Shown piece after piece: positions 40,877 through 61,495 of a stretch of 64,000 nt of DNA; within the stretch, counting starts at the first letter, position 1, and each line of letters opens with the position of its first letter. Source of the stretch: Methanothrix sp. (GTDB lineage: Archaea > Halobacteriota > Methanosarcinia > Methanotrichales > Methanotrichaceae); NCBI GenBank assembly GCA_037128175.1, contig JBAXWY010000006.1:28858-92857 (forward strand). Reading direction: 5' to 3'. The notes beneath the pieces were generated by a model. That model was given only the letters and a program-made list of their open reading frames with translations, was not told where the DNA came from and did not search any database. The translations under genes were made by a program, and so were the position numbers.

Positions 40877-41509
40877 TTAAAACAATCTTGGTAATGGAAT
40901 GATGAATATGTTTGGGCGTTGCGCCACTTGGACATTATTAGCAGAGGGTGTTCCAGACAAATACGAATAGGCGAAATATAGAATTATGATCACCAAGAGT
41001 ATTAACGCAAAACCTAGAAGCAATATTGAACGGTTGCCCCATTTATATTCTTCATTATAAATATCATATATAAAATCCCATTGTTGATCTCTTGTTTCCG
41101 GTAATTCCCCTAACGGAGATGCTGCTTGAACGGACTTTATGTTAGACGCAATTGATGTTACTAGGACTATTGCCGCAAGAACAATCACGCCGATGATATA
41201 TGGATCTATCTGAATTTTATCTCCATTTCCATTAAAAATGAAGTATAATAACCCGAATACACCCGTCAAAAGAACTCCGCAGGCAGGGATCACAGCTTTA
41301 CTTTGCTCCCTTATGTGATTACGGTTAACCTTATAAATATTTATATAATCGTTAGAATCTAATAATTGATTGGAAACGAGATGGACATCAAGTGGCTCTA
41401 ATTCGGATTCTAATTCTTGTTCCAATCCAGGAACTGATTCGGATTTTAATTCAGGCTCAGATTCAAGTTCGGTTTTGCCGTCCGAGCTAATAGATTGGTT
41501 TTCTTCCAA
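40877..41509 (-). CDS. Hypothetical membrane protein (AT-rich) with acidic ELES-type N-terminal repeats
   Basis: 210-aa ORF, 3 TM helices (2+1), low GC. Confidence 0.55.
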   Translation of the reverse strand: MEENQSISSDGKTELESEPELKSESVPGLEQELESELEPLDVHLVSNQLLDSNDYINIYKVNRNHIREQSKAVIPACGVLLTGVFGLLYFIFNGNGDKIQIDPYIIGVIVLAAIVLVTSIASNIKSVQAASPLGELPETRDQQWDFIYDIYNEEYKWGNRSILLLGFALILLVIIILYFAYSYLSGTPSANNVQVAQRPNIFIIPLPRLF

Positions 41510-41536
41510 TTGAGATAACTTCCGTTACATTTAGTC

Positions 41537-41860
41537 TTATCTTATTACTGCCTTTGGATAAAAATGCAATTTATTACGGTCAACTTGGTTTACTCGTATA
41601 GTATCTTCAACAATTTTTAATCTATCGGCATTGGGTACATAAATACCCCAATTTCTTTCTTTGACACCCATATCTTTTGCGATCTGCATCCTTAAAATGC
41701 CGATTTGTTCGTCGCCTCTTATAACTACAAGATGTCCGCGATTTCCAGGTAATTGAACGCGAATATTGTTAGGTGGTAAACTTTCTCTGACGTTCCTCCT
41801 GGCATGGCAACTAACTGCTTTCACCTTATCTCTAATCGACTTCATTGGAGGCTTTGTCAT
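41537..41860 (-). CDS. Hypothetical protein, possible ubiquitin-like beta-grasp domain
   Basis: 3' part of ORF 41537-42325 (the 5' part is an alternative frame of the upstream gene). Strand-strand-helix-strand pattern; start uncertain. Confidence 0.45.
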   Translation of the reverse strand: MTKPPMKSIRDKVKAVSCHARRNVRESLPPNNIRVQLPGNRGHLVVIRGDEQIGILRMQIAKDMGVKERNWGIYVPNADRLKIVEDTIRVNQVDRNKLHFYPKAVIR

Positions 41861-42018
41861 TAGATCATATAACTGAATTGCTTTGCTTATAATCCTTTTC
41901 AGTAGATTCACCAAAAAATAAACCACTCCCGAGATTTTAAGGAGCAACTCACGGGCCATTAGATGCTGATCGAAAACGCCAAAATGACTTCGCCGCTTCG
42001 CTTCACTCGTGAGAGCCG

Positions 42019-44892: not shown

Positions 44893-45303
44893 TCAGTTGA
44901 GAAGGAGCGTCCAGGCAACCAGCCAGAAATCGACTACCATGAACTCTACATAGATCCAATCTTTGGTCTTGAAGCTTGCTGCATCTATATTCAAGAACGT
45001 ATAGGTATACTTTTGAATGACATAGGTAAGCAGTATTACAGAAAGCATCACGAAATGCCAGGGATAACGATCTAATGCCGCACCTGTATAATAGCAGGCA
45101 AAGCCCGCCACGGTTCCGAGGATAGAAGGATACACGGTCTTGATTATTCCATCAATGCGGTCCTTTCTGCGTTCGGCTGCGCTCTTGGGCAAGACTTTGG
45201 GCGGTAGCTTGGCTACCTTTTCACTCGGTTTTTCCTGGGTAGTCGCGAGGGTCGCGAGCCGTTGGTCTTCCTTATTGCCAACCTTTTTTTCTTTCTTGGC
45301 CAT
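44893..45303 (-). CDS. EMC6-like archaeal membrane protein
   Basis: Three TM segments; KDW.YV.FM...FW.V.WTLLLN tail; adjacent to ABCE1. Confidence 0.7.
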   Translation of the reverse strand: MAKKEKKVGNKEDQRLATLATTQEKPSEKVAKLPPKVLPKSAAERRKDRIDGIIKTVYPSILGTVAGFACYYTGAALDRYPWHFVMLSVILLTYVIQKYTYTFLNIDAASFKTKDWIYVEFMVVDFWLVAWTLLLN

Positions 45304-45386
45304 CCAACCTTTGCATTTCATTATATGATAATAGCGTTTTGGTCCGGGAAAAGTCCAAGTACTATAACTTTCAAGAGCCTCTGCAT

Positions 45387-45842
45387 GTGTATGTCGTAGC
45401 GGATGCCTCGGTATTCATCTGGGGTAAAAGGCCAGCAGGGGAATTGATCACCGTCCCGGCGGTTGAAGCGGAGCTCAAAGATATAAGGACAAAGTCCCTG
45501 CTTCACATCTTCGAGACGCGAGTGGAAAGCCCCTCCCCCCAGGCGCGAAAGGCTGCAGAGCGCGCCGCAACACAGACAGGCGACCTCAAAGCACTGTCTT
45601 CCGCTGATTTGGATGTCCTGGCAAAAGCCCTGGAATATAGAGCAGTTCTAGCTACCGATGACTACGCTCTGCAAAACGTCGCTCTTCACCTCGGCCTGAA
45701 GATCGAGACCATCGGGCAGCCCAGGATAAAGAGATTGCTAAAACACGTCCAGAGGTGCCAGGGCTGCGGCAGCAAATTCGAGGGGGAAACTTGTGCGGAT
45801 TGCGGAACTCCTGCCCGAAAGAAAAAGAGGTGCATAAGATGA
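45387..45842 (+). CDS. nob1: Nob1-family PIN endonuclease with Zn ribbon
   Basis: VADAS, T...V..E, TGD...LS.AD, TDDYALQN and CQGC...CADCG. Confidence 0.88.
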   Translation: MYVVADASVFIWGKRPAGELITVPAVEAELKDIRTKSLLHIFETRVESPSPQARKAAERAATQTGDLKALSSADLDVLAKALEYRAVLATDDYALQNVALHLGLKIETIGQPRIKRLLKHVQRCQGCGSKFEGETCADCGTPARKKKRCIR

Positions 45843-46456
45843 AGAATATTGAAACTTTGATTAAGAAGGCAACAGAACTAAAGGCGGAAGGACTGGTTGA
45901 AGGCCAGATATCAGAGGAGCTGAATGTCTCCAGCGAGACGGTGACCTGGCTGCTTACTCATGCTGAGAAGACGAGCACATCGCCCGGGCCCAAAGATATC
46001 TCAGTGGACTGGTCCATGATCGGCAAGAGTGCCTTTAGGCTGAACCACGTCTCGGAAGCACTCTCCGATATCATTTATGATACTTTAGACGACAACGACT
46101 GCGGCGTGGATGTCGTGGTGGGCATAGCTTTAAGCGGCCTGCCTCTGGCCAGCATGGTGGCCAATAGCCTGGCGGCGGAGCTTGCTGTCTACACTCCCAG
46201 CAAACAGATGCTCACCAAAGAGAGCGGCAAGGCGCGCGGCAATCTGAGCGCTAACTTCGCCGGTGTTATGGACAAAGAGTGCATCATCATAGACGATGTG
46301 ATTACATCCGGCCAGACGCTGGAAGAGGCTGTCGAGTATCTGGATGAGCACGGGGCCAAGATCAATGCAGTCGCTGTCCTGATCGACAAGAAGGGCACGG
46401 ACGAGATCGCGGGAGTTCCCGTGGTTTCGCTCTTGAAGGTCTTGAGAGTAAATTAG
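45839..46456 (+). CDS. PyrE-like PRTase with N-terminal HTH (GfcR-like)
   Basis: I.EELNVS.ETVTWL HTH, DISVDWS and IIDDVITSG PRPP motif. Confidence 0.85.
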   Translation: MKNIETLIKKATELKAEGLVEGQISEELNVSSETVTWLLTHAEKTSTSPGPKDISVDWSMIGKSAFRLNHVSEALSDIIYDTLDDNDCGVDVVVGIALSGLPLASMVANSLAAELAVYTPSKQMLTKESGKARGNLSANFAGVMDKECIIIDDVITSGQTLEEAVEYLDEHGAKINAVAVLIDKKGTDEIAGVPVVSLLKVLRVN

Positions 46457-46599
46457 ATCAAACCGATTATGAGATGGCCGGAAAAGACGGCCATTCAAAT
46501 ATTTTCTTCGGAACCCTGATCTTTGCGCGTACTTTTCCCCGACCCTTAGAAAGCCTTTTAGCATTCCTGTATCAACTTTCGCACTCAAGCTGATCAACT

Positions 46600-49500
46600 A
46601 TGTTCTCCGAGGATGAGTATCGATTGGACTTCTTCGTGGATGAGGGATTCCAGCGCAAGAAGTGCGACAAATGCGGCAAATTCTTCTGGACCAGGAACGG
46701 CGAGAGGAGGACTTGCGGGGACCCGCCCTGCGATCCCTATACCTTCATAGGCTCTCCCATATTCAAACGCGAGCACACAATAGACGAGATGCGCGAGCAC
46801 TACCTCAGCTTCTTTGAGGCCCGAGGGCACGCTCGCATCAAGAGGTATCCGGTGGTGGCCCGCTGGCGAGACGACATTTACCTCACCATTGCCTCCATCG
46901 CCGATTTCCAGCCTTTTGTGACCTCCGGGCAGGTGCCGCCGCCCGCCAACCCCCTCACCATCAGCCAGCCCTGCATCAGGCTTGATGATCTAGATTCGGT
47001 AGGGCGCAGCGGACGGCATCTCACCACCTTCGAGATGATGGCCCACCACGTCTTCAACACTCGCGAAAAGGAGTACTACTGGAAGGATCGTACGGTCCAA
47101 TTATGCGATGAGCTGCTGGTCGGTCTGGGCATGGACCCGCTGGCTGTGACCTACAAGGAGAATCCCTGGGCAGGCGGCGGGAACGCGGGACCGAGCGTGG
47201 AGGTCATGGTCGGGGGTCTGGAGCTTGCCACGCTGGTCTTCATGGACCTTAAAACTGCACCAGGAGGGGCCATCCAGATCAAGGACGAGTCTTATGAGAA
47301 GATGAACAACTACATCGTGGACACCGGCTACGGTCTGGAGAGGTTTGTCTGGGCCTCCAAGGGCTCGCCTACCATTTACGATGCTATTTTTCCCGATCTG
47401 GTCAGGAAGGTGGCCGACCTGGCGGGCGTCGAGCACAACCTGCAAGACCCTGAGTATGCCGAGATCTTCGCCCAGAATGCCCGCCTTGCAGGAATGGTGG
47501 ATCTGGACGAGTACAGCATGCAGGATCTGCGCAGGAAAATTGCGGGCAGCATCGGCATCTCGCCCGAGAAGCTGGAGAAGACCATCGAGCCCATGGAGCG
47601 CATCTATGCCGTGGTGGACCATACCCGTTGCCTGGCTTACATGTTTGGAGACGGCATCATCCCCTCCAATGTCAAAGCAGGCTACCTGGCAAGGCTGGTC
47701 ATCCGCCGCACTCTGCGCCTGATGAAAGAGCTGGAATTGTCTCTGCCACTGGCGGAATTGGTGGAGATGCAGATCCAGCGGCTGGACTATTCTGACTGGC
47801 AGGAGCGCTTTGTCACCATCAAGGAGATCCTCGACCAGGAAGAGCAGAAGTACGCGGAGACCCTGGAGAAGGGCAAGCGTCTGGTCAAGAAGACGGCCGA
47901 GCACTTTAAAAAGTTGAACCAGCCCATTCCCCTGGTGGAGATGATCTCCCTTTACGACACGCACGGCATTCCCCCTGAGATCGCTCGCGAGTCGGCAGAG
48001 GAGATGGGGGCAACGGTGGAACTGCCGGACAACTTCTACTCACTGGTGGCCAAGAAACGCATCCGGGCCGAGAAAGTAGAAGCCAAAGCCACCCTGCCCG
48101 GCAAGACTGAGCTTTTATTCTACGAGCAGCCCTTCGGGCAGGTCTTCGAGGCCCAGGTGCTGGATGTGATGCAGGACGGCAGCATCATCCTGGACAGAAC
48201 GCTCCTCTACCCAGAGGGCGGCGGCCAGCCGGCTGATCACGGCACTCTGGAGAAGGGGGGCAGGGCTTTCTCTGTAGTGGATGTGCAAAAGTCGGGAGAC
48301 GTTGTGCTGCATAAGTTAGCAAGGCCGGGATTGGCGAAAGGCGACTATGTCACCGGCAAGGTGGACATGCGTCGCAGGCTGGCGCACGCCCGCCATCATA
48401 CTGCCACTCACCTGGTGCACGACTCCGCAAAACGCGTTTTAGGCAAGCACGTCTGGCAGGCAGGAGCCCAGAAGAGCGAGGATCGTGCCCGGCTGGACAT
48501 CTCCCACTACAAGCGCATCACAACCCTGGAGCTGAAGGCGATAGAGTTAGAAGCTAACCGGCGGGTGATGGAGATGGAACCAGTGGACACCCAGTTCCTT
48601 CCCAGGACGGAGGCGGAAAAGCTCTTCGGCTTTGAGCTGTACCAGGGAGGCGTGCCTCCTGGAAATCAGATTCGCGTGGTGCGGGTGGGCAGCGACATCG
48701 AGGCCTGTGCTGGAACGCACGTCACCAACACAGGGCAGATCGGGGCCATCAAGATCCTGCGCGCCGAGCGCATTCAGGACGGCGTGGAGAGGATCGAGTT
48801 TGCTGCAGGCGAAGCGGCCGTGCGGGCGGGCCAGGAGCGCGACGACCTGCTCTCCGGAGCCGCAGACGTGCTGCGCGTTCCGAACGAGCAACTGCCCCGC
48901 ACGGCGGAGCGCTTCTTTGAGGAGTGGAAGGGCCAGCAGAAGGAGATCGAGCGACTGACGGATGAACTGGCATTGGTAGATGTCATGTTCCTGGAAAAAA
49001 ATGCTTGGGAAAGCATGTCGATAAATGGTCTAAAAACGATAAGAGGTATTGTAAACAATTGGGATTTTGAAAGATTGATCAAGACTAGCACGCTACTTGC
49101 GAAGAAGGATTATTTTACAGTAATCGTGGATGGGAGTGGAAAGTTTGCAGTAGCGATTGGAAACACTGGTTTGAAAAGCGGCATGAAAGCAAATGCTACT
49201 GCAAAAGAGATCATAAGGAACTTAGGCGGCAAAGGTGGAGGAAAAGCAGAGTTGGCTCAAGGTGTTGTTACAAAGCTAGATAGCTTGGAAGAAGATCTTG
49301 GCAAGACTTTAGCGTTATATTTAGGTATTCCTTACTTTAGTTCGCGAGAAGAGAATGTAGAATCAAATTTAAGAAGTGAACCCCCCTCAGAAAAGACTGA
49401 GCGCTCCGATTTACTCTTGAAGCAAGGAATAGACCTTTGGCGCAAAGGATATCGTGATAAAGCAATGGAGTGCTTCGATAAATCTATAGAATTAGATCCC

Positions 49501-49965
49501 ATGAATGAGCAAGCATGGATAAAAAGAGGCATTGCTTTTGGCAACCAAGGTGAACATAACCAAGCAATCGAATGCTTCCGTCATTCTTTGGAAATCAATC
49601 AAGAGTCCGCGGAAGCATATCATAATCTTGGAGTTGCTTTTGGACATATTGGTCAATATAAGGATGCCGAAGAGAATTTTAACAACGCTATTGAAAAGAA
49701 GCCGGATTATGCAAATGCGTGGCTCAATATGGGTACTGCTAATCTCAAGCGAGCCAAGTATATAGATGCATTAAATTGCTTCAATAAGGCTATTGAGCTG
49801 AATCCAAATGATGAAATGGCCTGGTTTAGCAAAGGAGTGGCACTTTCAGAAAGGAAGGACTATTCGGAGGCTATTGATTCTTTAAGGACTGCCATCGACC
49901 TAAAGCCATCTTTTGAAGCCGCTAAGGCCAAAATTGCTTCAATAGAAAGCAAATTAAAAAATTGA
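46600..49965 (+). CDS. alaS: Alanine--tRNA ligase with divergent C-Ala domain and C-terminal 5-TPR extension
   Basis: Archaeal AlaRS motifs TIASIADFQP, QPCIR, H.T.FEM, DTGYGLER, HTATH and ACAGTH. Single frame through GGKGGGKAELAQG into TPRs (about 49400-49965). Confidence 0.92.
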   Translation: MFSEDEYRLDFFVDEGFQRKKCDKCGKFFWTRNGERRTCGDPPCDPYTFIGSPIFKREHTIDEMREHYLSFFEARGHARIKRYPVVARWRDDIYLTIASIADFQPFVTSGQVPPPANPLTISQPCIRLDDLDSVGRSGRHLTTFEMMAHHVFNTREKEYYWKDRTVQLCDELLVGLGMDPLAVTYKENPWAGGGNAGPSVEVMVGGLELATLVFMDLKTAPGGAIQIKDESYEKMNNYIVDTGYGLERFVWASKGSPTIYDAIFPDLVRKVADLAGVEHNLQDPEYAEIFAQNARLAGMVDLDEYSMQDLRRKIAGSIGISPEKLEKTIEPMERIYAVVDHTRCLAYMFGDGIIPSNVKAGYLARLVIRRTLRLMKELELSLPLAELVEMQIQRLDYSDWQERFVTIKEILDQEEQKYAETLEKGKRLVKKTAEHFKKLNQPIPLVEMISLYDTHGIPPEIARESAEEMGATVELPDNFYSLVAKKRIRAEKVEAKATLPGKTELLFYEQPFGQVFEAQVLDVMQDGSIILDRTLLYPEGGGQPADHGTLEKGGRAFSVVDVQKSGDVVLHKLARPGLAKGDYVTGKVDMRRRLAHARHHTATHLVHDSAKRVLGKHVWQAGAQKSEDRARLDISHYKRITTLELKAIELEANRRVMEMEPVDTQFLPRTEAEKLFGFELYQGGVPPGNQIRVVRVGSDIEACAGTHVTNTGQIGAIKILRAERIQDGVERIEFAAGEAAVRAGQERDDLLSGAADVLRVPNEQLPRTAERFFEEWKGQQKEIERLTDELALVDVMFLEKNAWESMSINGLKTIRGIVNNWDFERLIKTSTLLAKKDYFTVIVDGSGKFAVAIGNTGLKSGMKANATAKEIIRNLGGKGGGKAELAQGVVTKLDSLEEDLGKTLALYLGIPYFSSREENVESNLRSEPPSEKTERSDLLLKQGIDLWRKGYRDKAMECFDKSIELDPMNEQAWIKRGIAFGNQGEHNQAIECFRHSLEINQESAEAYHNLGVAFGHIGQYKDAEENFNNAIEKKPDYANAWLNMGTANLKRAKYIDALNCFNKAIELNPNDEMAWFSKGVALSERKDYSEAIDSLRTAIDLKPSFEAAKAKIASIESKLKN

Positions 49966-50021
49966 ACAAAAGGAAAAGGTGCTTGCATGGATAGAATGTT
50001 GAACGTCCCATTAAAGCATGT

Positions 50022-50250
50022 CATAGGATGAGCAGCGCAGACATCGATGAGCTTCTCAAGGCGGAGGCACTCCTGGCGGAGCGGGACGGATCGCCCTTTT
50101 GGGCAGCGAGACAGGCAAGTTGGTCGCCACGGTGGGCCAGTCAGGCATCGATAAGGGCATCAAGGCTGGCTGCATCATCCTGGCGGATGGCTCAATGTGG
50201 AGAAGCTGGACAAGGCATTTCAGGCGGGAAGAACGGCGATGATGGCCTAA
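50022..50250 (+). pseudogene. Degenerate copy of alaS 3' end (C-Ala/DHHA1 remnant #1)
   Basis: Across frames: HRMSSADIDELLKAEALLAERD / IALLGSETGKLVATVGQSGIDKGIKAGCII / NVEKLDKAFQAGRTAMMA*. Confidence 0.75.
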
Positions 50251-50314
50251 ATATTTTTTTCTTTGACGATACAATTTTCAATAACCAATTTGGGTTTGAA
50301 GGGACGGCAGGATC

Positions 50315-51328
50315 ATGGGAACTGAAATAAAAACATGGCAGATTATAGACGGCAAGTTAACCTCCGTGGATACCGCTCTGAAATATGAAGGCCGAACTGA
50401 GCCATACGATCTTGAACCCTGGCTCGCATCAAATCCTGAAATAATAGGAACGGATATCATGATCATTGGCAGGCAGGTTATGACTAAATCCGGCCCTATT
50501 GACTTACTTGCCGTTGACAAATCTGGAAACACGGTGATTATTGAAATCAAGCGCGCCGAACTGCCACGAGAGACACTTGCTCAGGCGATCGATTACGCAT
50601 CAAATGTTGCTGAATGGACTGCAGAAAAATTGAGCGAAATTCATTCGTCATACACTTCAAGAGCATTTGGGGAATCTTTCAACGAGGCATTTCCTGATAT
50701 CGATCTGGAGAATGTAAATCTCAATAGCACGCAAAGAATTCTCCTTGTCGGCTTCTCCATCGAGGCGTCACTCGAAAGAATGATTGAATGGCTTTCGGAC
50801 TCTTATGAAGTCAACGTCAATGCCATAGTTCTAAATTATGTCAAGACAAAAGGTGGAGACGAACTTCTGATGAAGACGTCCATCATTTCTGAAGAGGCGG
50901 AACAGGAACGGAGCGGAAAAAGGAAAAAGTTTGAAATACCGATGTCCGATGAACCTCCCGCCATTGATTACGATGTGTCAAGCCTGAAGGGATTGTTGCT
51001 CGATTACCTCTCAAGAGATCGAGTCACTAACAGGCGAATGCGGGACATTCTATTTCCATCACTCTTGAATACCAAGGAACCTGATAAGCTCAGCAGAGAT
51101 CAATTATCAAGCAAATTTGTTGAGTTCGACAATAATTACGATGAGTCGAAAGTAGGATTCTACCTGACATCAATTTCATCGCAACTTGGTATGAAGAAGA
51201 ACGATTTTCTTCGACAAGTTATTGCATACGAGTACCCACGGCATCATTGGGAGAAAGATAACTTTTCGATTCGGCTCAAATACCGGGATCTAGTTTTAGA
51301 GGTCCTTGAAGAACTGAAGAGGCAATAA
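50315..51328 (+). CDS. NucS/DUF91-like PD-(D/E)XK endonuclease domain protein
   Basis: E..LE.WL, IGRQV.T..G.IDLLAVD..G..VIIEIKR and AQAIDYAS. Confidence 0.8.
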   Translation: MGTEIKTWQIIDGKLTSVDTALKYEGRTEPYDLEPWLASNPEIIGTDIMIIGRQVMTKSGPIDLLAVDKSGNTVIIEIKRAELPRETLAQAIDYASNVAEWTAEKLSEIHSSYTSRAFGESFNEAFPDIDLENVNLNSTQRILLVGFSIEASLERMIEWLSDSYEVNVNAIVLNYVKTKGGDELLMKTSIISEEAEQERSGKRKKFEIPMSDEPPAIDYDVSSLKGLLLDYLSRDRVTNRRMRDILFPSLLNTKEPDKLSRDQLSSKFVEFDNNYDESKVGFYLTSISSQLGMKKNDFLRQVIAYEYPRHHWEKDNFSIRLKYRDLVLEVLEELKRQ

Positions 51329-51372
51329 TCAAAACTCACATTTATATCAAAAGAGCATCCAACACCATCTCC

Positions 51373-51621
51373 GTGAATAACGAAAACCTACTGGAAAGGA
51401 TCACCATAAATCCCAAAGTAATGGTAGGCAAACCCGTCATCCGGGGCACTCGGCTCACCGTGGAGTACATCCTGGGACTCCTGGCCCATGGCACCACCAT
51501 GGAGGATATCCTGGTGGAGTATCCCGGCTTGGAAAAGGACGACATCTATGCCTGTCTTCTCTTTGCCTCCAAGACCCTTCAAGACGCTTCTTTCATTCCC
51601 CTCGCGGCCGAGGCCGTTTAG
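51373..51621 (+). CDS. DUF433 antitoxin
   Basis: RITINPKVMVGKPVIRGTRLTV..IL..LA.G....DIL.EYP.L...DI.ACL.FA. Confidence 0.92.
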   Translation: MNNENLLERITINPKVMVGKPVIRGTRLTVEYILGLLAHGTTMEDILVEYPGLEKDDIYACLLFASKTLQDASFIPLAAEAV

Positions 51622-51777
51622 ATGCGTTTCCTGGTTGACGAATGCGTGGGCCCTTCTGTCGTGAGGTGGCTACGCGAGAACAATCATGACGCCACCTCTG
51701 CTTGCGAGGATTGCAGGGGATGGGAAGACGAAAGCAGAGGCCGAGATCATGGATGGCCTAAGAATCGTGGTGCATAA
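51622..51777 (+). pseudogene. DUF5615 (PIN-like) toxin, truncated
   Basis: MRFLVDECVGPSVVRWLRENNHDA...RGWEDE then runs into the alaS remnant and stops after 51 codons; immediately follows DUF433. Confidence 0.8.
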
Positions 51778-51993
51778 GATGGGCAGCGAGACCGGCAAGC
51801 TCGTGGCCGCAGTAGGGCCTAGTCGGGCCTGGCGAAGGGCGTCAAGGCGGGCAGCATCATCCGGGCCGCGGCCAAGGCCCTGGGCGGGGGCGGAGGAGGT
51901 CGACCGGAGCTGGCGCAAGGTGGGGGGCCCAATGCCGAGAAGCTGGACGAGGCCCTGGCGGCGGGAAGGGAGGCGATGAGGGCAGGGGCGTAA
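51731..51993 (+). pseudogene. Degenerate copy of alaS 3' end (C-Ala/DHHA1 remnant #2)
   Basis: KAEAEIMDGLRIVVHKM-GSETGKLVAAVG / [56 protein letters not shown]; host-like high GC. Confidence 0.85.
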
Positions 51994-52599
51994 GGCCTCT
52001 GCCTCGGTCTTCTTGCGCTCGGATGATGCACGCCGCAATTTCATAGAGGCAGGAGAAGGCGGAAAAGATCCGGTTCATTGAGCAGGGCCTCTATGCGGAC
52101 ACGGATTATGCAAGACAGGATTGCCAAGCGGTCCTCCCGAACATTTCTCCCCAACTCCAATACTCATTTGCCCCGCTCTAACAAGCTGGCCCAGGAGTTC
52201 AACCGGATGGAGCTGGATTTTTTCAGCGATCATCGCACCGCAGGCACGCGCATCTACCGGCAATATTCTCTCACCCAAATCACATCCACCTCACCGGCCA
52301 CCTTACTTGCATATCATTCCCCTGGCCGAGATTATTGCTCTGGCCCAGGCTACAAGAGTGTCATGACGGCAGGCGTGCAAAAGAGCATTATGTTTTTTAA
52401 TAATTTCATACTCCGTCCACGTTTCCTTTTTTTGGGCGCCGTAAGAGTCAATAACTTTATATACATTTAAAAGATATTAATCATATGCTTTATTTGAGAG
52501 TAGTTTACCATAGCATTAATGTGGTGTATATGTAACATTCGAAATAAGATTCAACAATTAAAATATTTATTATATGTTGCAAACCAAGAGGAGTAAGAT

Positions 52600-55500
52600 A
52601 TGTTCGCCAGTAATTTAACCCCGAAGAATAGGCATAGATTAAAGAGAAAAAGCTATTTTAGCATCGGCTTTGCCGGAGTACTCTTTTTTGCCGGCATGCT
52701 ACTTGTGGTATTGATGTCGAACAACAGCGCTGCGATTCCTGGTGATGTCTCAGTTGACAATGTAATCAACGTATCCGACAACCAGAATCTTAGTGCCAAT
52801 GGTGCAACCCCTGGCGCCGAACTTCACTTCAGAACAAAGAGGGCAACACCAGAAGAGAGAAGGGCTGCCGCCGAGCGTTTCAAAGAGATTTATAAACCCG
52901 CCCAGGTACTAGCTCAAGCTAAGGCTCTTGCTGCAGCTCAGAATGTTTCTGCTGCCCCACCGGTCTTTGCCCTCGATCCCGGCGGTGTACCACATTATTT
53001 CGGACCATACGCAAACTGGGCCAACAGCCCGCTGCCTAAGGGCGTTATAACCAGCATCGCGGTTACGGACGGAGGCAGCGGCTACACTGCGGCACCTGTT
53101 GTTATCGTTGATGATGCCTACAACAACATTGGAGTTGTTAGGGCTAATGTTGCGGCAGTGCTTAATGGCGGCGTTATAACCGGCATCACAGTATATGCCG
53201 GTGGCAGTGGATATACGGCTCCAGTAGTCACTATCACCGACCCTACCGGCACGGGCGCCAGTGCTACGGCATACATAGGCGGTCCCCTAGCAGGCGGCAT
53301 GAGAAAATTCGTCGATTCGCTGCCCGGTCTGAATGCAGCCGGAAAGAACGACCTGGGACAGTATATACCAGTTGCCGTTCCGGACAAGACAACCTATCCA
53401 GGATGCGATTACTATGAGATCGCCGTCGTGCAGTACTCCGAGAAGATGCATAGAGACCTTCCCAATACAACTCTGCGAGGATATGTGCAGCTTGAGACAC
53501 CCCAGAATTTGGCCACCAGCAGGCACATCCCACTGAAGTACCCCAACGGCACCGCAATAAAGAACGCAACAACAAACTTGCCTGTTCTTGCACATAATGA
53601 TACCCAATACCTGGGGCCAACTATTGTGGCAGAGAGGGGCGTTCCTGTGCGTGTGAAGTTCCATAACTATCTTCCCACGGATGTCGATGGCGACCTCTTC
53701 ATTCCCGTGGACCACACAGTCATGGGATCAGGAATGGGTCCGATGGGAATGATGGCAAGCCCCATGAACTACAGCGAAAATCGCGCTGCAGTTCATCTGC
53801 ATGGTGGCGATACAGTGTGGATCAGCGATGGAACACCTCACCAGTGGACAACACCTGCCGGTGAGCACACATCCTACCCGAAAGGTGTCAGTGTGAGGAA
53901 TGTCCCGGACATGGACGGCGGAAATGAGCCGCAAGGTACGCTGACTTTCTACTATACCAACGATATGAGTGCCAGGCTGATGTTCTATCATGACCATGCC
54001 TACGGCATCACCCGTCTCAACGTCTACTCCGGAATGGCGGCGGGTTACCTGATCACCGACAACGTAGAACAAGACCTGATCAAAGGTACCGACGTTACCG
54101 GTGTCAATCCTACCAAAGCCAAGCTTCTTCCCGATGTAGGGATTCCTCTGGTCATCCAGGATAAGACCTTCGTTGATAGTACCACCATAGCAGCACAGGA
54201 TCCTACCTGGAACTGGGGGACGGGACCAAGAGACGTGAACGGAAAAATAACAAACGCTGTCACCGGTGACCTCTGGATGCCCCATGTCTACATGACGAAT
54301 CAAAATCCCTGGGACATTACCGGAACTAATGCCTTTGGCCGGTGGATGTATTCCCCCTGGTTCTGGCCTCCCGCCACACCTACAAAGAGAGGGCTGATTC
54401 CTAACCCATACTACACAGGAGGAGCCGGAAGCGCAGCACCCTGGGAGCCGCCCATGATACCCGGAACTCCAAACCCATCCATGGCGATGGAGTCCTTTAT
54501 GGATACGCCCATAATCAATGGCGCTGCTTATCCCAGTCTAGAGGTGGGGCCCAAATCCTATCGCTTCCGCATCCTGAATGCAGCCAACGAGAGATCTTTG
54601 AATTTGCAGATGTATTTGGCAAGTTCCATCATCAATAGCATAACCGTTACCAATGGCGGCAGCGGCTATACACAGCCATCGATCTTTATCACGGATTCTA
54701 CAGGATACGGTCGGGGCGCTACTGCCAGAGCCACGATTTCCGGCGGCATCATTACTGGCATATCTCTTCTGACTGCAGGAAGCAACTATACAGCACCGAT
54801 GGTTACCATTACCGATCCTACCGGCAAGAGCGCTACTGCTACGGCATCAGTCTACACAGGTCTGACGGAAGTGGGCATGGTCCCTGCATCCAATTGTGCA
54901 GGCTTGCCGGCTAACTGGCCGACAGATGGAAGAGATGGCGGTGTACCTGATCCACTACGAAAAGGTCCGTCATTTATCCAAATTGGCAGCGAAGGCGGCT
55001 ACCTGCCGGCACCAGTAGTGATAGAGAACCAGCCGGTTACTTTTATCGGAAATGCGCAGGCGTTCAACTTCGGAAATGTAGATAAGCATACACTTCTGCT
55101 GGGGCCGGCGGAGCGGGCGGATGTCATCATCGACTTCTCCCAATATGCAGGAAAGACCATCATTCTCTACAATGATGCACCTGCGGCGTTCCCAGCGGCG
55201 GACCCGCGTGTGGATTACTACACTCATGACGTGGACCAGAGGGATACGGGAGGTGCACCAACAACTCAACCGGGATATGGCCCCAATACCAGGACCATCA
55301 TGCAGATCAATGTGAAGGCAACAACAAGACCAGATCCTGCTTACGATCTGGCCACACTCAATCAGGTATTTGCCAAAAAGGCAGGCAAGAGGGGCGTATT
55401 TGAGGTATCGCAACCGCCGATCATCGTTCCGCAGGCAGCTTACAACTCCGCCTACGACAAGACGTTCCCCTTCGATGTTATTAAACAATACGTTCAGCTC

Positions 55501-56877
55501 TACCAATCCAGCCATACATTCTGGAATATTGGCGGCTCGGAACTGACGATCCCACTGGAGCCCAAGGCAATCCATGATGAGATGAACGCTGCCTATGACG
55601 AAGAGTACGGACGGATGAGTGGTTTATTAGGGCTTGAAATGCAAACTACTAACCCCTTGAATCAGAATTTCATGCTCTACGGATTCGCAAGTCCACCTGT
55701 CGAGGTCATAAAGGACTCCATGACGCCTCTCTCTGAACCATCTGCAGGCGATGGGACTCAGATCTGGAAGATCACGCACAATGGTGTTGATACCCACACA
55801 TATCACTTCCATCTGTACAATGTGCAGGTCATCAACAGAGTTGCATGGGATGGCATTCTCTTACCGCCTGATGCCAATGAGCTGGGCTGGAAGGAGACTG
55901 TCAGGACCAACCCCCTGGAGCATACCATTGTGGCCTTGAGACCGGTTGCACCACGGGTGCCTTTCAAGGTTCCCAACAGCACCCGCTTGATTGACCCGAC
56001 AATGCCTGCAGGAGACATTCTGAAGGGCCCGCCTGGTGGATTCCTTGACCCGGCTGGAAATCCGGTTACCGTCTTGAACCATCTGGTCAACTTCGGTTGG
56101 GAGTACATGATACACTGCCATCTCCTGGGCCATGAAGAGATGGATATGATGCACACCCAGGTGTTTGCAGTTGCACCGGAAGCGCCGACTAACCTTGCAG
56201 TCACTGTAGGCAGTCCTGTTACTTTAACATGGGTGGACAATTCCATCAGCGAAACCGGATTCACCATCCAGAGAGCAAAGGATGCCGCATTCACCGTGGA
56301 TCTGACTACATTCACAGTTGGACCAAATGTAGTAACATACATCGATAATACGGCAGTGCCTGGTACAACATACTACTACAGGGTGCGAGCTGACAACCTG
56401 GTAGGCGATACCACAGTGTATCCGGCTCCTGCTGTTGGATTCCCCCAGAAGACGGCTGAATCAAAATGGTCAAACTTGGCGGTCAACCTGTATGTTTCCA
56501 TTGCTCTTCAGGCCTTCAATGGCCAGTATGTCTGTGCAGAGGGCAGCGGCGGTGATGGAGTCGTAGCTAACCGTAATGTCATCGGTCCCTGGGAGACTTT
56601 CAAGCTCATCGATCAGGGCAACGGCAATGTGGCTCTGCAAGCCTTCAATGGCCAGTTCGTCTGTGCTGAAGGTGGCGGTGGCGGCCTTTTGGTAGCTAAC
56701 CGCAATTGGATCCTCGGATGGGAGACTTTCAAGCGCATAGATCTGGGCGGCGGCAATATAGCTTTGCAGGCCGCCAATGGCCAGTACGTTTGTGCGGAAG
56801 GAGGCGGCGGACGTGAGGTGGTGGCTAACCGCGATTGGATCCGCGAATGGGAGACTTTCAAGCTGATCGCAATCTAA
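52600..56877 (+). CDS. Large exported multicopper oxidase with inserted GGSGYT repeats, FN3 and C-terminal fascin-like domain
   Basis: Cu motifs VHLHGG, FYHDH, HTYHFHL and HCHLLGHEEMDM; FN3 (APTNL...LTW.DN..YYYRVRA); 3 fascin repeats. Confidence 0.88.
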   Translation: MFASNLTPKNRHRLKRKSYFSIGFAGVLFFAGMLLVVLMSNNSAAIPGDVSVDNVINVSDNQNLSANGATPGAELHFRTKRATPEERRAAAERFKEIYKPAQVLAQAKALAAAQNVSAAPPVFALDPGGVPHYFGPYANWANSPLPKGVITSIAVTDGGSGYTAAPVVIVDDAYNNIGVVRANVAAVLNGGVITGITVYAGGSGYTAPVVTITDPTGTGASATAYIGGPLAGGMRKFVDSLPGLNAAGKNDLGQYIPVAVPDKTTYPGCDYYEIAVVQYSEKMHRDLPNTTLRGYVQLETPQNLATSRHIPLKYPNGTAIKNATTNLPVLAHNDTQYLGPTIVAERGVPVRVKFHNYLPTDVDGDLFIPVDHTVMGSGMGPMGMMASPMNYSENRAAVHLHGGDTVWISDGTPHQWTTPAGEHTSYPKGVSVRNVPDMDGGNEPQGTLTFYYTNDMSARLMFYHDHAYGITRLNVYSGMAAGYLITDNVEQDLIKGTDVTGVNPTKAKLLPDVGIPLVIQDKTFVDSTTIAAQDPTWNWGTGPRDVNGKITNAVTGDLWMPHVYMTNQNPWDITGTNAFGRWMYSPWFWPPATPTKRGLIPNPYYTGGAGSAAPWEPPMIPGTPNPSMAMESFMDTPIINGAAYPSLEVGPKSYRFRILNAANERSLNLQMYLASSIINSITVTNGGSGYTQPSIFITDSTGYGRGATARATISGGIITGISLLTAGSNYTAPMVTITDPTGKSATATASVYTGLTEVGMVPASNCAGLPANWPTDGRDGGVPDPLRKGPSFIQIGSEGGYLPAPVVIENQPVTFIGNAQAFNFGNVDKHTLLLGPAERADVIIDFSQYAGKTIILYNDAPAAFPAADPRVDYYTHDVDQRDTGGAPTTQPGYGPNTRTIMQINVKATTRPDPAYDLATLNQVFAKKAGKRGVFEVSQPPIIVPQAAYNSAYDKTFPFDVIKQYVQLYQSSHTFWNIGGSELTIPLEPKAIHDEMNAAYDEEYGRMSGLLGLEMQTTNPLNQNFMLYGFASPPVEVIKDSMTPLSEPSAGDGTQIWKITHNGVDTHTYHFHLYNVQVINRVAWDGILLPPDANELGWKETVRTNPLEHTIVALRPVAPRVPFKVPNSTRLIDPTMPAGDILKGPPGGFLDPAGNPVTVLNHLVNFGWEYMIHCHLLGHEEMDMMHTQVFAVAPEAPTNLAVTVGSPVTLTWVDNSISETGFTIQRAKDAAFTVDLTTFTVGPNVVTYIDNTAVPGTTYYYRVRADNLVGDTTVYPAPAVGFPQKTAESKWSNLAVNLYVSIALQAFNGQYVCAEGSGGDGVVANRNVIGPWETFKLIDQGNGNVALQAFNGQFVCAEGGGGGLLVANRNWILGWETFKRIDLGGGNIALQAANGQYVCAEGGGGREVVANRDWIREWETFKLIAI

Positions 56878-56984
56878 GAGACTGCTAGATGTGCTGTCCT
56901 ATCCTTTTTACAGGAAGGGATGGCTATATTTTTATGGAGTGAGCAATAATTGAGTTTTGCATGAAAAACTGTTGAGATGATACC

Positions 56985-57707
56985 ATGAGATACGAATTAG
57001 CTCTCTTATTTGCGCTTAACCTATTGGTTTTCGCAATGCCGGCAACTGCTGAAAACGTTGATCAATATATAAGGAACCTTGAAGATGAAAATAGCGTTAC
57101 TAAAGCGGATGCTGCAATGGCTCTTGGTGAGCTCAATGACACAAGCGCTATTGACCCGTTGATTCAAGCCCTTAAAGATGAGAACAGCTCGGTTCGATCT
57201 GAGTCGGCCAAAGCTCTGGGATGGATCAAAGACAAACGCGCACTCGACCCATTAATTCAGGCTTTGAATGACCAGGATGGAGAAGTTCGCGGGTCAGTCG
57301 TAGCGGCTCTCGGTGAGTTGAAAGACAATCAAGCCGCAGATCCGCTAATACAATCTCTGCGTGATGATATGGTCTCAGTCAGGGCTAAAGCTGCCAAAGC
57401 TCTGGGAAAGATTGGGGATGAAAAAGCCGTCGATCCATTGATCCAGGCTCTAAAGGATGAAGACCCCATAGTAAGGTATCAATCGGCAGAAGCTCTGGGC
57501 AATATAAAAGACGACCGAGCAGTCGATCCACTGATAGAGGCTCTGAATGATGAGGATAACAGTGTAAGATACTGGACGATAGTGGCTTTGGGAAATATAG
57601 GTGACACCCGTGCTACAGAACCATTGACTAAAGTGTCTCAGGAGGATAGTGATAGTTACGTCCGAAATGCTGCAGAAGATGTACTGAAGAGACAGGGATG
57701 GAAATAA
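56985..57707 (+). CDS. Signal-peptide-bearing HEAT-repeat (PBS-lyase-like) protein
   Basis: Six to seven 31-aa repeats DPLIQAL.DE...VR..AA.ALG.I.D. Confidence 0.88.
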   Translation: MRYELALLFALNLLVFAMPATAENVDQYIRNLEDENSVTKADAAMALGELNDTSAIDPLIQALKDENSSVRSESAKALGWIKDKRALDPLIQALNDQDGEVRGSVVAALGELKDNQAADPLIQSLRDDMVSVRAKAAKALGKIGDEKAVDPLIQALKDEDPIVRYQSAEALGNIKDDRAVDPLIEALNDEDNSVRYWTIVALGNIGDTRATEPLTKVSQEDSDSYVRNAAEDVLKRQGWK

Positions 57708-57794
57708 GGGAAACTGGCAATTATGCTCGCAAGCATGCACCTTTGATATGATAAGAAATGAAGAGCACCTCATTCTTATTTTATTATAAAACGC

Positions 57795-57925
57795 AATACC
57801 CGCAGCTTGCTGCGACTGGGATAAAGGGCATACGTATTCAACTTAGGCTTGGATCAATCAGCCCTACCGGGTTCCATTTTCATGCGGCGACGCTTTGGAT
57901 GCCCCGCAGCTTGCTGCGCGGGTGC
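57795..57925. mobile_element. Short non-autonomous element with two palindromic ends (IS200/IS605-type PATE or REP-like)
   Basis: ATACCCGCAGCTTGCTGCG (57796-57814) and ATGCCCCGCAGCTTGCTGCG (57899-57918), each a CGCAGC-TT-GCTGCG palindrome. Confidence 0.55.
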
Positions 57926-57977
57926 GCCGCCGCCGTTTCACTCTTTTGAGATAATGATCTATCTCTCCAACACCCAT

Positions 57978-59921
57978 CTATGGCCTGATTAGATTTAATG
58001 TTTCCCAGGCACCTATTTCGTTGCGGTCGGCTACAACTTCACCGCCGCCTTCTGCACAGATATATTGGCCATTGGCCGCTTGAATAGCCATCTTGCCAAG
58101 ACCGATTAGCTTGAAAGTCTCCCAGGCACCTATAGCATTGCGGTTGGCTACGACTGTTCCGCCACCGCTGCCTTCTGCGCATAAATACTGACCGTTGGCT
58201 GCCTGGAGGGCTACATTATCGTTTCCTATATAGATTAGCTTAAATGTCTCCCAAGCAGTTATTGCATTGCGGTTGGCTACGACTGTTCCGCCACCGCTGC
58301 CTTCTGCGCATAAATACTGACCGTTGGCTGCCTGGAGGGCTACATTATCGTTTCCTATATAGATTAGCTTAAATGTCTCCCAGGCACCTATTGCATTGCG
58401 GTTGGCTACGACTGCTCCGCCACCGCTGCCTTCTGCGCATAAATACTGGCCATTGGCTGCCTGAAGGGCTACTTTTTTCAGATCAATGAATTTGAAGGTC
58501 TCCCATGCGCCGATAGCATCGCGGTTAGCCACGACCTCGCGACCTCCTCCTCCTTCCGCACAGAGAAACTGGCCATTATGAGCTTCAAGAGCTACTTTGC
58601 TATTTCCTTGATCGACAAGTCGGAATGTCTCCCAGGCACCTATTGCATCGCGGTTGGCCACAACTCCATCTCCTCCGCCGCCCTCTGCACAGACGTACTG
58701 GCCGTTGGAGGTCTGAATGGCTATGTTGCTAAGATCTACGAGATTAAACGTCTCCCATGCGCCGATATCATTACGGTTAGCTACGACTTCGCCTCCACCG
58801 CTACCTTCCGCACATAGGTACTGACCATTAGCTGCCTGAAGAGCTACATTGCCGTTCCCTACATCGATGAGCTTGAACGTCTCCCAAGCGCCTATAGCAT
58901 TACGGTTTGCTGTAATTTCGCCGCCACCGCTGCCTTCTGCACAGAGAAAATAACCGTTGTCAGCTTGAAGAGCTACGTTACCATTTCCTTGATTGATAAG
59001 CCCGAATATTGCCCAGTTGCCAATTGAATTGAGATTGGCCCGGACATCGGTGCCGCCACCATTTATTGCGCAAACATACTGACCATTGACTGCCTGAAGG
59101 GCAACATAATTTGGCAAATATTTGTTGGGATCATTCATATATTCATTGATATGCTCGTTTTGTGCCTCCCATGATTGTAATAAATTTGCTGGTTCTAATT
59201 GCGAACTTACTGCCCATTCATTTATAAAATCAATGACTTTTCCAAGTTCTATTTCCTCGTTTTTCCATAAGTTAATGGCGCGAATTACATCCGCAAGCAT
59301 AACTGCCGGATTAAGGGTAAGATCATAATATCCATCTATGTAATAACTACATATTTTATTATGATCGCCGCCATAGTCTTTAATTGCCTTGCTTCTTCCA
59401 TCATCATAACCCCGTTGTGCATCGCTGCGGCAATCGTATGGAACCCCATAGCAATAGTGGTAAATGACTCCGCCATTTCCTGGAAAATCATCGCATCTTG
59501 GAGCACATACTTGAAATTGAATGTTATATGTAGTCTCTTCTTCCGGCAACCATCGATCGCAATCTTCGCTTAGACCTAATTTTCTATCTATGGCGCCTCT
59601 TGCTCTCCACTTCGTAACTATATATTGTTTCCCATCCGCCAATCCCTTTCTATATCCCTGTTGATAATCATCATTACCCTTAAAGCCCTCCATTATCATA
59701 TTCGTATACCCAATGAATTCTAATAGGACCTGCAAAGCATCCAATGGAGATGCTATCGAGTTGCTCTGCAGGGATGACAATAACCCCGTCTCATTGCTGC
59801 TCTGCCGAATGCTGGTATCATTGCTTAAGGTGTAATTTGATTGAAACTCCTCAGCACATATTACATTAAAACAAAGCGGCATTACAAGGATTATTAGGAT
59901 TACGAGTTTCGTTTCGTTCAT
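57978..59921 (-). CDS. Secreted protein with unique N-terminal domain and nine fascin-like repeats
   Basis: Signal peptide; 9x ALQAxNGQYLCAEGxGGxxVVANRxAIGAWETF. Confidence 0.85.
   Translation of the reverse strand: MNETKLVILIILVMPLCFNVICAEEFQSNYTLSNDTSIRQSSNETGLLSSLQSNSIASPLDALQVLLEFIGYTNMIMEGFKGNDDYQQGYRKGLADGKQYIVTKWRARGAIDRKLGLSEDCDRWLPEEETTYNIQFQVCAPRCDDFPGNGGVIYHYCYGVPYDCRSDAQRGYDDGRSKAIKDYGGDHNKICSYYIDGYYDLTLNPAVMLADVIRAINLWKNEEIELGKVIDFINEWAVSSQLEPANLLQSWEAQNEHINEYMNDPNKYLPNYVALQAVNGQYVCAINGGGTDVRANLNSIGNWAIFGLINQGNGNVALQADNGYFLCAEGSGGGEITANRNAIGAWETFKLIDVGNGNVALQAANGQYLCAEGSGGGEVVANRNDIGAWETFNLVDLSNIAIQTSNGQYVCAEGGGGDGVVANRDAIGAWETFRLVDQGNSKVALEAHNGQFLCAEGGGGREVVANRDAIGAWETFKFIDLKKVALQAANGQYLCAEGSGGGAVVANRNAIGAWETFKLIYIGNDNVALQAANGQYLCAEGSGGGTVVANRNAITAWETFKLIYIGNDNVALQAANGQYLCAEGSGGGTVVANRNAIGAWETFKLIGLGKMAIQAANGQYICAEGGGEVVADRNEIGAWETLNLIRP
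58117..58475. repeat. Near-identical 129-bp tandem repeats (fascin units)
   Basis: GTCTCCCA... unit starts at 58117, 58246 and 58375. Confidence 0.9.
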
Positions 59922-60066
59922 TACTACAACCTCATGTCATCTTATTAATCAATCCAATAACTATTACAGCATTAACTTATAAAAATAGCTTTCTATTTTG
60001 GAGGACTTCTATGTCGTCCCAACATTGTAGTCCAATGATTTCAATTGGAATCCACATAACTCATTT

Positions 60067-60288
60067 CAGTATGTCTGTGCGGAAGGCGGTGGTGGAAATG
60101 TAGTTGTGGCTAACCGAGATGCAATAGCTGCTTGGGAGACCTTGAGGATAGTCAATCTGGGAAATGGCAATTATGCTCTACGTGCCGCTAATGGCCAATA
60201 TGTCTGTGCCGAATTTGGTGGTGGAGATGGAGTTATGGCTAATCGAAACGCAATAGGTGCGCGGGAAACATTAAGAATAATCCCGTAA
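60067..60288 (+). pseudogene. Orphan fascin-repeat fragment
   Basis: QYVCAEGGGGNVVVANRDAIAAWETL...YALRAANGQYVCAE...; in-frame TAG at 60028 upstream and no start ahead of the first repeat. Confidence 0.65.
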
Positions 60289-61358: not shown

Positions 61359-61495
61359 GGCGGTCAGGCGGCTTGCCTTTAACTTGTAGGATTGCGAAGG
61401 ACGAATTTCGCTGACCGCGGGTCAACGAGAGTCTCGACGAGATGATGTCAAAAGTCTAAAAAAAATTGAGTGGCGCGATTCTCGCGCCTCCTTTC

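Follow-up and report, generated by a model that had tools for sequence, protein, structure and literature searches.

Aminoacyl-tRNA synthetases with appended protein-interaction domains are components of the eukaryotic multi-synthetase complex, displaced "orphan" C-terminal cassettes occur in the Rhs and CdiA polymorphic toxin loci, and genomic islands and integrative elements, including casposons at the end of the aEF-2 gene, insert in the 3' ends of tRNA or protein genes. A locus that can be compared with all three lies in a 64,000-nucleotide stretch of a Methanothrix sp. genome (assembly GCA_037128175.1, contig JBAXWY010000006.1; this stretch is the window, and all coordinates refer to it), where alaS, the gene for alanyl-tRNA synthetase (AlaRS), has its C-terminal C-Ala domain replaced by a foreign one that continues into five tetratricopeptide repeats (TPRs). 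Passages of two accounts (PMC10036535, PMC8887476) portray AlaRS as an enzyme that has retained a single conserved prototype structure across biology. One of them (PMC10036535) also describes natural mini-AlaRS without the editing and C-Ala domains, in which the C-terminal part is plastic while alanylation is kept; the change there is a loss, whereas in the window it is a replacement together with the gain of a repeat domain.

In comparison with the canonical archaeal enzyme (TIGR03683; the A. fulgidus structures 3WQY/3WQZ and 2ZVF), the catalytic, editing and C-Ala/DHHA1 parts are all present in the chimera, but it has ~220 extra residues, and its C-Ala is of foreign composition and only 36% identical to the one typical of its own genus. 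The likeness to components of the multi-synthetase complex lies in a non-catalytic helical module that is attached to the terminus of a core translation enzyme via a flexible linker and plausibly serves docking. In contrast to those components, the archaeal case is a polymorphism at the strain or species level and not a fixed lineage trait, and the module was gained together with a swapped C-Ala. Considering the evidence as a whole, the best explanation is a real chimeric alaS that arose by module replacement and whose TPR tail would be a selected, tethered docking platform, a reading to which we assign a probability of roughly 0.68.

Anatomy of the chimeric gene

The open reading frame at 46600..49965 (+) encodes 1121 amino acids without an internal stop and consists of a complete archaeal AlaRS, a disordered linker, five TPRs and a capping helix. 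The equivalog model of the archaeal alanine--tRNA ligase, TIGR03683, covers residues 4-901 with 1251.8 bits (cut-off, 744.7) and is spanned from position 1 to 895 of 902, so the match runs from end to end. In the Pfam search, tRNA-synt_2c was found at residues 63-591 (E 2.2e-124), tRNA_SAD at 691-733 (E 1.8e-16), DHHA1 at 841-898 and TPR families over 934-1117, with TPR_1 (123.3 bits) and TPR_2 (104.6 bits) each recognized in 4-5 stretches and TPR_8 and others also matching the tail. The His- and Cys-containing stretches HHTATHLVH and EACAGTHV, which we take to be the zinc motifs, are readable in the translation.

Four parts, all on the forward strand, can be delimited. The native core (46600..48957; residues 1-786) comprises the catalytic, tRNA-recognition and editing domains as well as the start of the helical linker, and ends with ...FFEEWKGQQKEIERL. 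It is followed by the replaced domain, hereafter C-Ala' (48958..49323; residues 787-908), with the remaining helical linker and a DHHA1-like globular domain that carries the motif GGKGGGKAELAQG; by a linker that is predicted to be disordered (49324..49389; ~residues 909-930); and by the five TPRs, the capping helix and the stop codon (49390..49965; residues 931-1121), assigned from Pfam, AlphaFold2 and Foldseek. The ~220 extra C-terminal residues beyond the archaeal AlaRS part are the linker, the TPRs and the cap. In the AlphaFold2 model of residues 760-1121 (mean predicted local distance difference test score, pLDDT, of 87), a single long helix spans the junction and leads into an alpha/beta domain (model residues 52-149, pLDDT mostly 81-96), which corresponds to C-Ala', a disordered stretch of ~15 residues (model residues 152-166, pLDDT <50) and 11 helices at pLDDT 90-98, which make up the five TPRs and the capping helix.

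For the TPR part, the best Foldseek matches were consensus-TPR proteins (E 8e-14), the TPR domain of OGT, and MamA, the designed consensus TPRs being 30-39% identical to those of the tail. Foldseek with the two-domain model returned TPR matches only and none for C-Ala, and thus the identity of C-Ala' stands on sequence and Pfam. The sequence matches PDB 2zvf, the C-terminal domain of A. fulgidus AlaRS (E 2.2e-14), as well as residues 763-894 of 3wqy; a G-rich ...GGG(R/K)..AQG motif is common to C-Ala' and 2zvf, and the 36% identity to the native C-Ala of the genus extends over 92 amino acids. By fold and motif, C-Ala' can be regarded as a divergent but genuine C-Ala. A complex prediction with two copies of residues 760-909 scored 0.33 against a mark of 0.42 and counts for neither side.

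The composition changes abruptly within the gene. In 300-bp windows, the GC content is 0.60-0.67 up to 48949 and 0.41-0.40 from 48950 to 49999; the core (46600-48957) has a GC of 0.595 and a GC at third codon positions (GC3) of 0.772, and the tail (48958-49962) has 0.400 and 0.361. The drop in GC3 from 0.77 to 0.36 falls at residue 786/787, and the two halves of the tail are similar in this respect (C-Ala', 0.38; linker and TPRs, 0.35). With a genome GC of 0.508, just 3.9% of the 5777 1-kb windows of the genome are as low in GC as the foreign block. At the same place the DNA homology to relatives ends: the nearest species genome (G012, locus L012) is 95.7% identical at the nucleotide level over 45099-48965, where the match stops, the blastn matches of nine relatives (G012 and eight others) terminate at 48956-48972, and none of the relatives' loci gave a blastn match between 48972 and 50027. 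The left recombination junction (48956..48972, +), as placed by the blastn ends, the alignment and the GC break, lies in register within the conserved ...GAGATCGAGCG.CTGA... (codons for EIERL), and in the junction alignment the first tail codons after it still resemble the native ones. The right junction has no homology. Between them, the foreign low-GC block of 1061 bp (48966..50026, +; GC 0.399) consists of C-Ala', linker, TPRs, stop codon and a further 61 bp. No second copy of it was found in the genome (self-match only), a repeat search around it found no terminal repeats, and a promoter and terminator scan gave nothing above the shuffled expectation.

Beyond ...QQKEIERL the protein is of foreign origin; the gene is a chimera made by module replacement. 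A first-pass annotation of the window had placed a break in GC and codon usage after ...QQKEIERL, at about 48960, and had read a frame of 1121 amino acids with a divergent DHHA1-like segment, a linker, five TPRs and a cap; it was right in both respects (Pfam, TIGR03683 and AlphaFold2 for the latter), and its claim of a foreign C-Ala is borne out, the AlaRS of relatives ending at C-Ala. It had also raised the concern that a stop codon or an indel error might separate the TPR part, and contigs assembled from separate runs have the same uninterrupted frame: one of 3344 bp from run X1 spans 48481-51824 and one from run X3 spans 48909-51362, both with 0 differences. Over 10336 bp, a separate metagenome contig of 11 kb (L028) shows 99.99% identity. 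Coverage of the stretch is incomplete in runs X10 and X7, from which no conclusion is drawn. This alaS is the sole match above the TIGR03683 cut-off in a genome scored 99.81% complete (a draft of 98 contigs).

Distribution and alleles of the tail

In 40 relatives (24 of them of the same genus), the AlaRS open frames have 905-953 amino acids wherever the gene is complete on a single contig, and none of the 40 matches past residue 918. When the 59 genomes of the genus were searched with the tail of a second long form, P0021 (see below), a full-length match was obtained in this genome only; the C-Ala+TPR tail is absent from 58/58 other genus genomes, which have stand-alone TPR proteins only, 42-47% identical to the P0021 TPRs. 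The architecture is not fixed in the group, a possibility that the first-pass annotation had left standing. In a survey of the phylum, TIGR03683 matched 394 of 401 genomes, and among the 150 matches listed no open frame reaches 1100 amino acids (maximum 1074, measured from stop to stop and including upstream sequence).

A HMMER search with C-Ala' against 1.84 billion cluster representatives resulted in 18 matches, only one of them close. This protein, P0002, is a 330-aa piece on a 1204-bp contig that starts 7 residues past the junction; it is identical to the window tail at 309 of 327 positions (94.5%), with 18 substitutions over both domains and no frame break. The remaining 17 matches, at 29-47%, are mostly Methanothrix-type C-Ala fragments. 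The 90%-identity cluster of the whole AlaRS (genus assignments being the names given by the source records) contains short forms of 905-906 amino acids with the native tail (P0022, 18 contigs; P0023, 16 contigs) and also the second long form P0021 (1122 aa, 18 contigs) together with P0025, both with the Pfam architecture tRNA-synt_2c + SAD + DHHA1 + TPR. The core of P0021 is identical to that of the window protein at 770 of 786 residues (98%), and its tail, which also begins after L786, is colinear over C-Ala, linker and five TPRs, with an identity of 52% over 314 residues. The linker motifs LG(I/V)PY(F/L) and REE are common to both tails, and the linker and TPR1 are the best-conserved parts between them. 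The C-Ala+TPR tail is a module family with at least two alleles.

Other tails occur on Methanothrix-type C-Ala. HEAT repeats follow it in P0003, a protein that is contiguous with the editing domain, and in P0008; P0007 has a C-Ala with a Cys-rich tail that looks zinc-ribbon-like by eye; and P0068 (993 aa) and P0006 have a variant C-Ala with a ~70-aa tail of unassigned type. A 240-aa protein with PBS-lyase-type HEAT repeats, a repeat type that is also found in the P0003 and P0008 tails, is encoded in the window itself at 56985-57707 (+), 5 kb downstream of alaS.

The organization recalls the Rhs and CdiA loci in that a conserved body ends in a sharp junction after a conserved motif, near-identical bodies carry divergent C-termini (cores 98%, tails 52%, both after L786), and older C-terminal pieces lie downstream, interleaved with small accessory genes. 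It differs from them in that the body is an essential housekeeping enzyme and the tail is C-Ala plus TPRs and not a toxin, in that no immunity gene is paired with the tail (only 61 bp of the block follow the stop codon), and in that the alaS orphans are decayed and without the upstream homology needed for re-use. The resemblance is one of organization only.

Several searches bear on the origin of the module. A protein homology search with residues 787-935 among proteins of 616-1962 amino acids gave no match, because the long forms sit in the 90% cluster that is represented by a short form. Residues 880-1122 of P0021 gave 546 matches, and among the 120 listed (multi-TPR proteins) none was seen with tRNA-synt_2c, a weak negative as the ranking was by summed repeat score. 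In the ESM Atlas, generic TPR clusters only were found, with a score of 0.79, below the lead threshold. As candidate sources of the TPRs, a REase/DUF559-TPR protein encoded beside alaS in another genome (G011, see below) and the TPR proteins of this genome itself were considered and rejected, the former being only 33% identical to the tail TPRs and the latter at most 34%. From these comparisons the source of the TPRs cannot be named. A literature search found no mention of an AlaRS-TPR fusion or of alaS serving as an insertion site.

Displaced gene ends and cargo downstream of alaS

Immediately behind the foreign block lies orphan 1 (50027..50246, +), the rest of the former functional alaS 3' end and now a pseudogene with a frameshift and with the region of the G-rich motif deleted; it corresponds to L012 3951-4109 and 4162-4226 at 78-82%. 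The next gene (50315..51328, +) encodes a NucS_C-like, PDC-S11-like protein of 337 amino acids, a candidate defence nuclease and older cargo outside the cassette. Pfam recognizes NucS_C (E 6.3e-8), and the N-terminal part is of the PD-(D/E)xK type; the PADLOC match to PDC-S11 (E 3.4e-44), PDC standing for candidate systems, involves only residues 1-203 and profile positions 1-196 of 358, and the C-terminal 130 residues match nothing. Then comes an intact DUF433 antitoxin-like gene (51373..51621, +; Pfam DUF433, E 1.9e-24), 81-87% identical in nucleotides to the genes right after alaS in G020, G005 and G023, and a truncated DUF5615/PIN-like toxin gene (51622..51777, +) of 51 amino acids that covers Pfam DUF5615 profile positions 1-38 of 110. 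DUF5615 has the full 119 amino acids in G074, G065, G017 and G045; relative to G074, ~300 bp are deleted in the window, where homology to G074 ends at 51736. The type II toxin-antitoxin (TA) pair DUF433/DUF5615 is thus broken in this genome, the antitoxin being left without its toxin. Finally, orphan 2 (51733..52004, +) is a distal and older piece left from a C-Ala coding end of the native type, and it leads into the native downstream flank. When translated it resembles a native C-terminus. It corresponds to L012 3906-3961 and 4025-4248 at 87-89%, has a GC of 0.66-0.68, carries an internal deletion of 63 bp (21 codons), a frameshift and one TAG, and, with this TAG, is matched by TIGR03683 positions 847-901 (E 3.3e-4).

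The same arrangement without the foreign block is present in G074, another species of the genus, where an intact canonical alaS is followed by the NucS-like gene (L033 2144-3169, minus strand, interrupted by one stop), DUF433, the 119-aa DUF5615 and a short distal alaS remnant. Window positions 50027-51736 are colinear with L033 3497-1733 (88.9% over 1766 columns), and 48700-48972 correspond to L033 3838-3566, just upstream. By this colinearity, G074 keeps the layout from before the insertion, in which a gene of the G074 type lost 68 bp that were replaced by the 1061-bp block.

Some further observations concern this part of the window. In an RNA-library run (X7), one contig leads from 51983 back to 50256 through 7 letters of other sequence, at a depth of 2.6 and with 38 letters on the shorter side. 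It might come from a co-occurring strain whose native alaS end directly precedes the NucS-like gene, or from 50256-51983 in tandem or circular form, and is too thin to count. Just upstream of alaS, two overlapping frames at 45339-46456 (+), of 167 amino acids with a Cys-rich C-terminus and of 233 amino acids, are kept in relatives at 88-93% nucleotide identity, and a further low-GC kilobase (0.375) is found at 41001-42000. Farther downstream, proteins of 1425 (52600-56877, +), 647 (57978-59921, -) and 678 (61496-63532, -) amino acids share DUF7910/fascin/FRG1-like beta-trefoil repeats, with one weak multicopper-oxidase match and one peptidase C25 domain among them; they probably form a cluster of surface or secreted proteins, in a region without synteny to five relatives.

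Displaced alaS ends are not confined to this genome. With a 371-bp probe for the 3' end of native alaS, matches were found in 52 of the 59 genus genomes, and 16 of the 59 have a second match to this end, which lies on the same contig, 0.7-4.1 kb downstream, in 11 and on another contig in 5, one of which (G015) may have just one copy, cut in two where a contig ends. In the loci that were fetched, the distal copy reaches the gene end and continues into the native flank. The left edge of this copy is at q189 in G065, G060 and G074 and elsewhere at q207, q225, q284, q316, q412 or q457; the window junction, at q176-183, is near the q189 edge. The duplicates are long, up to ~340 bp, and their edges are variable. 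Between alaS and the distal copy, most genomes have the DUF433/DUF5615 pair (Pfam was run on the pair of the window only, and that of relatives was recognized by similarity). Other cargo includes a ParE-like toxin (G064), DUF2281/PIN (G012), an HSDR_N-like nuclease (G020), an S-layer-like protein with an IS66 transposase and a UPF0150 (HicB-like) gene (G065), a 457-aa protein of unassigned type (G060) and, directly after alaS in G011 and on the opposite strand, a 433-aa REase_MTES_1575/DUF559 nuclease with ~7 TPRs (L016 4243-5541, -). The last of these gives weak PADLOC matches (PDC-S37, Hhe). The alaS 3' end in Methanothrix is a hotspot for the insertion of small cargo and for the duplication and displacement of the C-Ala end. 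This hotspot, the displaced native C-Ala fragments and the second tail allele go beyond the first-pass annotation.

Some assemblies are irregular at this locus. In G017, alaS (L035, G017:C5:55000-61000) is apparently split into three frames, which match residues 1-308, 306-525 (this one with a TGA) and 527-901; downstream come DUF433/DUF5615 and a C-Ala remnant of reduced length. The split may reflect a pseudogene, a sequencing error or a strain mixture. The alaS contig of G015 (G015:C25 end) stops in the C-Ala region at residue 828, and the rest starts G015:C75 (L021, L039). Further breaks of metagenome-assembled genomes (MAGs) within alaS, in G004, G019 and G008, fit repeats or strain variation disturbing the assembly.

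The pattern shares several traits with elements that integrate in 3' gene ends: the target gene stays functional via a supplied 3' end, a partial duplicate marks the far boundary, the cargo is low in GC and of TA or defence type, and arrays result from serial events. It differs from them in that no integrase (PF00589) or terminal repeats were found here (casposases were not searched), in that the alaS duplicates are long (~340 bp) with variable edges, and in that the newest block is a bare coding piece of 1.06 kb. It is possible, if rather unlikely, that elements with their own C-Ala segment use the alaS 3' end as an att site, in which case the block and the orphans would be decayed serial integrations and the TPRs cargo fused to a surrogate gene end. 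A functional gene with a replaced end, cargo and then a displaced copy of the old end that runs on into the native flank are the typical outcome of 3'-end integration; the left edges that coincide at q189 in three genomes, near the window junction, as well as the low-GC cargo of TA modules, nucleases and an IS66 transposase, speak for it, and the best of the 17 distant C-Ala' matches being Methanothrix-type C-Ala at 35-40% would fit an old copy carried on an AT-rich element of these hosts. Against this, no tyrosine recombinase (PF00589) was found within tens of kilobases of alaS in G000, G020, G005, G023 and G012, serine recombinases and casposases not having been searched, and a Pfam scan of the nine proteins of window 50028-63532 found no recombinase; the remaining copy edges vary, and the block is just 1.06 kb long, without end repeats and without a match in IMG/VR. 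A site-specific element with a surrogate gene end is a live explanation for the origin of the hotspot.

Role of the tail and other readings

The reading that we prefer, a module replacement that supplied a docking platform, can be set out as follows. Recombination in register within the codons of ...QQKEIERL would have joined the native core (residues 1-786) to the 1061-bp AT-rich foreign cassette, at the boundary of the helical linker and C-Ala and in a region that repeatedly takes up foreign DNA. The right-hand join would be illegitimate, with the removal of native sequence of about 70 bp. The former 3' end would have been pushed downstream, where it decayed into orphan 1, and orphan 2 would be an older remnant past an earlier insertion that carried the candidate defence nuclease and DUF433/DUF5615. 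In the protein, the core would charge and proofread tRNA-Ala as usual, and C-Ala' probably takes over dimerization and the binding of the tRNA elbow. The chimera must work because it is the only alaS in the genome, and from this necessity it presumably charges tRNA-Ala. A flexible linker of 20-30 residues would tether C-Ala' to the five TPRs and the cap, and the TPR domain may then act as a tethered protein-protein docking platform that brings a partner to AlaRS or makes AlaRS part of a complex. The frame has stayed open through a divergence of 48% between the alleles, with the linker and TPR1 conserved, and therefore the TPR part is taken as selected and not as junk; the comparison argues for selection on it.

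Several points weigh against this reading. The Pfam score of DHHA1 only just clears its cut-off (26.7 versus 25.9 bits), and the scan of species genomes and IMG/VR with C-Ala' and the two-tail alignment found no C-Ala+TPR relative and no donor; the missing tyrosine recombinase, described above, is a further point. Six DNA metagenome runs contain 0.98-1.00 of the sampled words of 48600-50400, and all six, the best DNA runs, are flagged as possible sources of the assembly, which limits their independence. Contigs of the RNA-library run X7 cover 48941-49239, 49240-49513, 49723-49899 and 49907-50228 with 0 differences and fit transcription, without being proof of it since DNA can occur in RNA libraries; the contig that crosses the left junction includes no more than 25 native letters, against a 31-letter rule.

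It is unlikely that the tail is a neutral passenger, that is, that the replacement is real and the TPRs, which came by an accidental in-frame fusion in the donor, are useless to AlaRS and tolerated since C-Ala itself is only loosely tethered and a disordered linker carries the tail. The tail is missing from all 58 other genus genomes and from the AlaRS of the 40 relatives, and is thus not needed for AlaRS in the genus; the linker is predicted to be disordered, neither a partner nor a conserved neighbour hints at a role, and the TPRs, with 30-39% identity to designed consensus repeats, look generic. On the other hand, the frame is open across three versions (the window, P0002 at 94.5% and P0021 at 52%), the linker motifs and TPR1 are strongly conserved between diverged alleles, and HEAT alpha-solenoid tails on other Methanothrix AlaRS suggest a recurrent advantage.

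The variety of tails allows a reading that is more doubtful still, in which the locus is a polymorphic cassette locus. Alternative C-terminal modules, namely the native C-Ala, the two diverged C-Ala+TPR alleles, C-Ala+HEAT, C-Ala with a Cys-rich tail and the variant C-Ala with a tail of unassigned type, would be swapped onto a near-identical AlaRS body at one fixed junction, the old ends being left as orphans among TA and defence genes, and the alleles would be old and kept by balancing or conflict-driven selection. If this were true, a virus or toxin factor that hits the AlaRS tail or the handling of tRNA-Ala would be one possible pressure, alpha-solenoid tails would give AlaRS strain-specific partners, and a housekeeping enzyme would have an architecture like that of polymorphic toxins.

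A functional link with the adjacent toxin and nuclease genes, which the first-pass annotation had suggested as one possibility beside virus conflict, is not supported. According to it, the tail would be a sensor or interaction module that, for example, senses an attack on tRNA-Ala or AlaRS or controls the neighbouring genes. The neighbours are indeed a PDC-S11 candidate (E 3.4e-44) and a PIN-like TA pair, TA and nuclease genes abound in the variable islet that this locus forms across the genus, and divergent tails on near-identical cores are a pattern that conflict-driven diversification could produce. The same neighbours, however, stand beside an untailed alaS in G074 (88.9%, 1766 columns), and the TA pair likewise in G020, G005 and G023, so that these genes were in place before the tail and show no co-variation with it. 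The toxin is truncated to 51 amino acids here, the G074 nuclease gene has a stop, and the cassette itself contains nothing defence-related, which makes such a link very improbable. That an assembler or binning step joined a low-GC block of another organism to alaS is hardly credible: the 98-contig draft, the abrupt break in composition and the P0002 contig, which starts 7 residues past the junction as if assemblies break there, could be taken to favour it, but the block has Methanothrix sequence of the same orientation on either side, frame and register are preserved across the join, which falls within a homologous domain, the X1 and X3 contigs and L028 carry the structure unchanged, and the architecture recurs in another full-length allele, P0021, seen on 18 contigs.

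On the module-replacement reading, the sole AlaRS of an abundant freshwater acetoclastic methanogen has a horizontally replaced C-Ala and what may be a TPR platform, and close relatives have a second, deeply diverged version as well as other helical-repeat tails. The genus thus offers a natural experiment on how far the domain for tRNA-elbow binding and dimerization can be exchanged, and a concrete candidate for archaeal complexes between a synthetase and a partner. The orphans and the tail also account for contig breaks and for annotation calls of "alanine--tRNA ligase-related protein, partial" in Methanothrix MAGs. More generally, the 3' end of an essential gene is a recurrent landing site for TA and defence cargo in these archaea, and its displaced ends record the past events.

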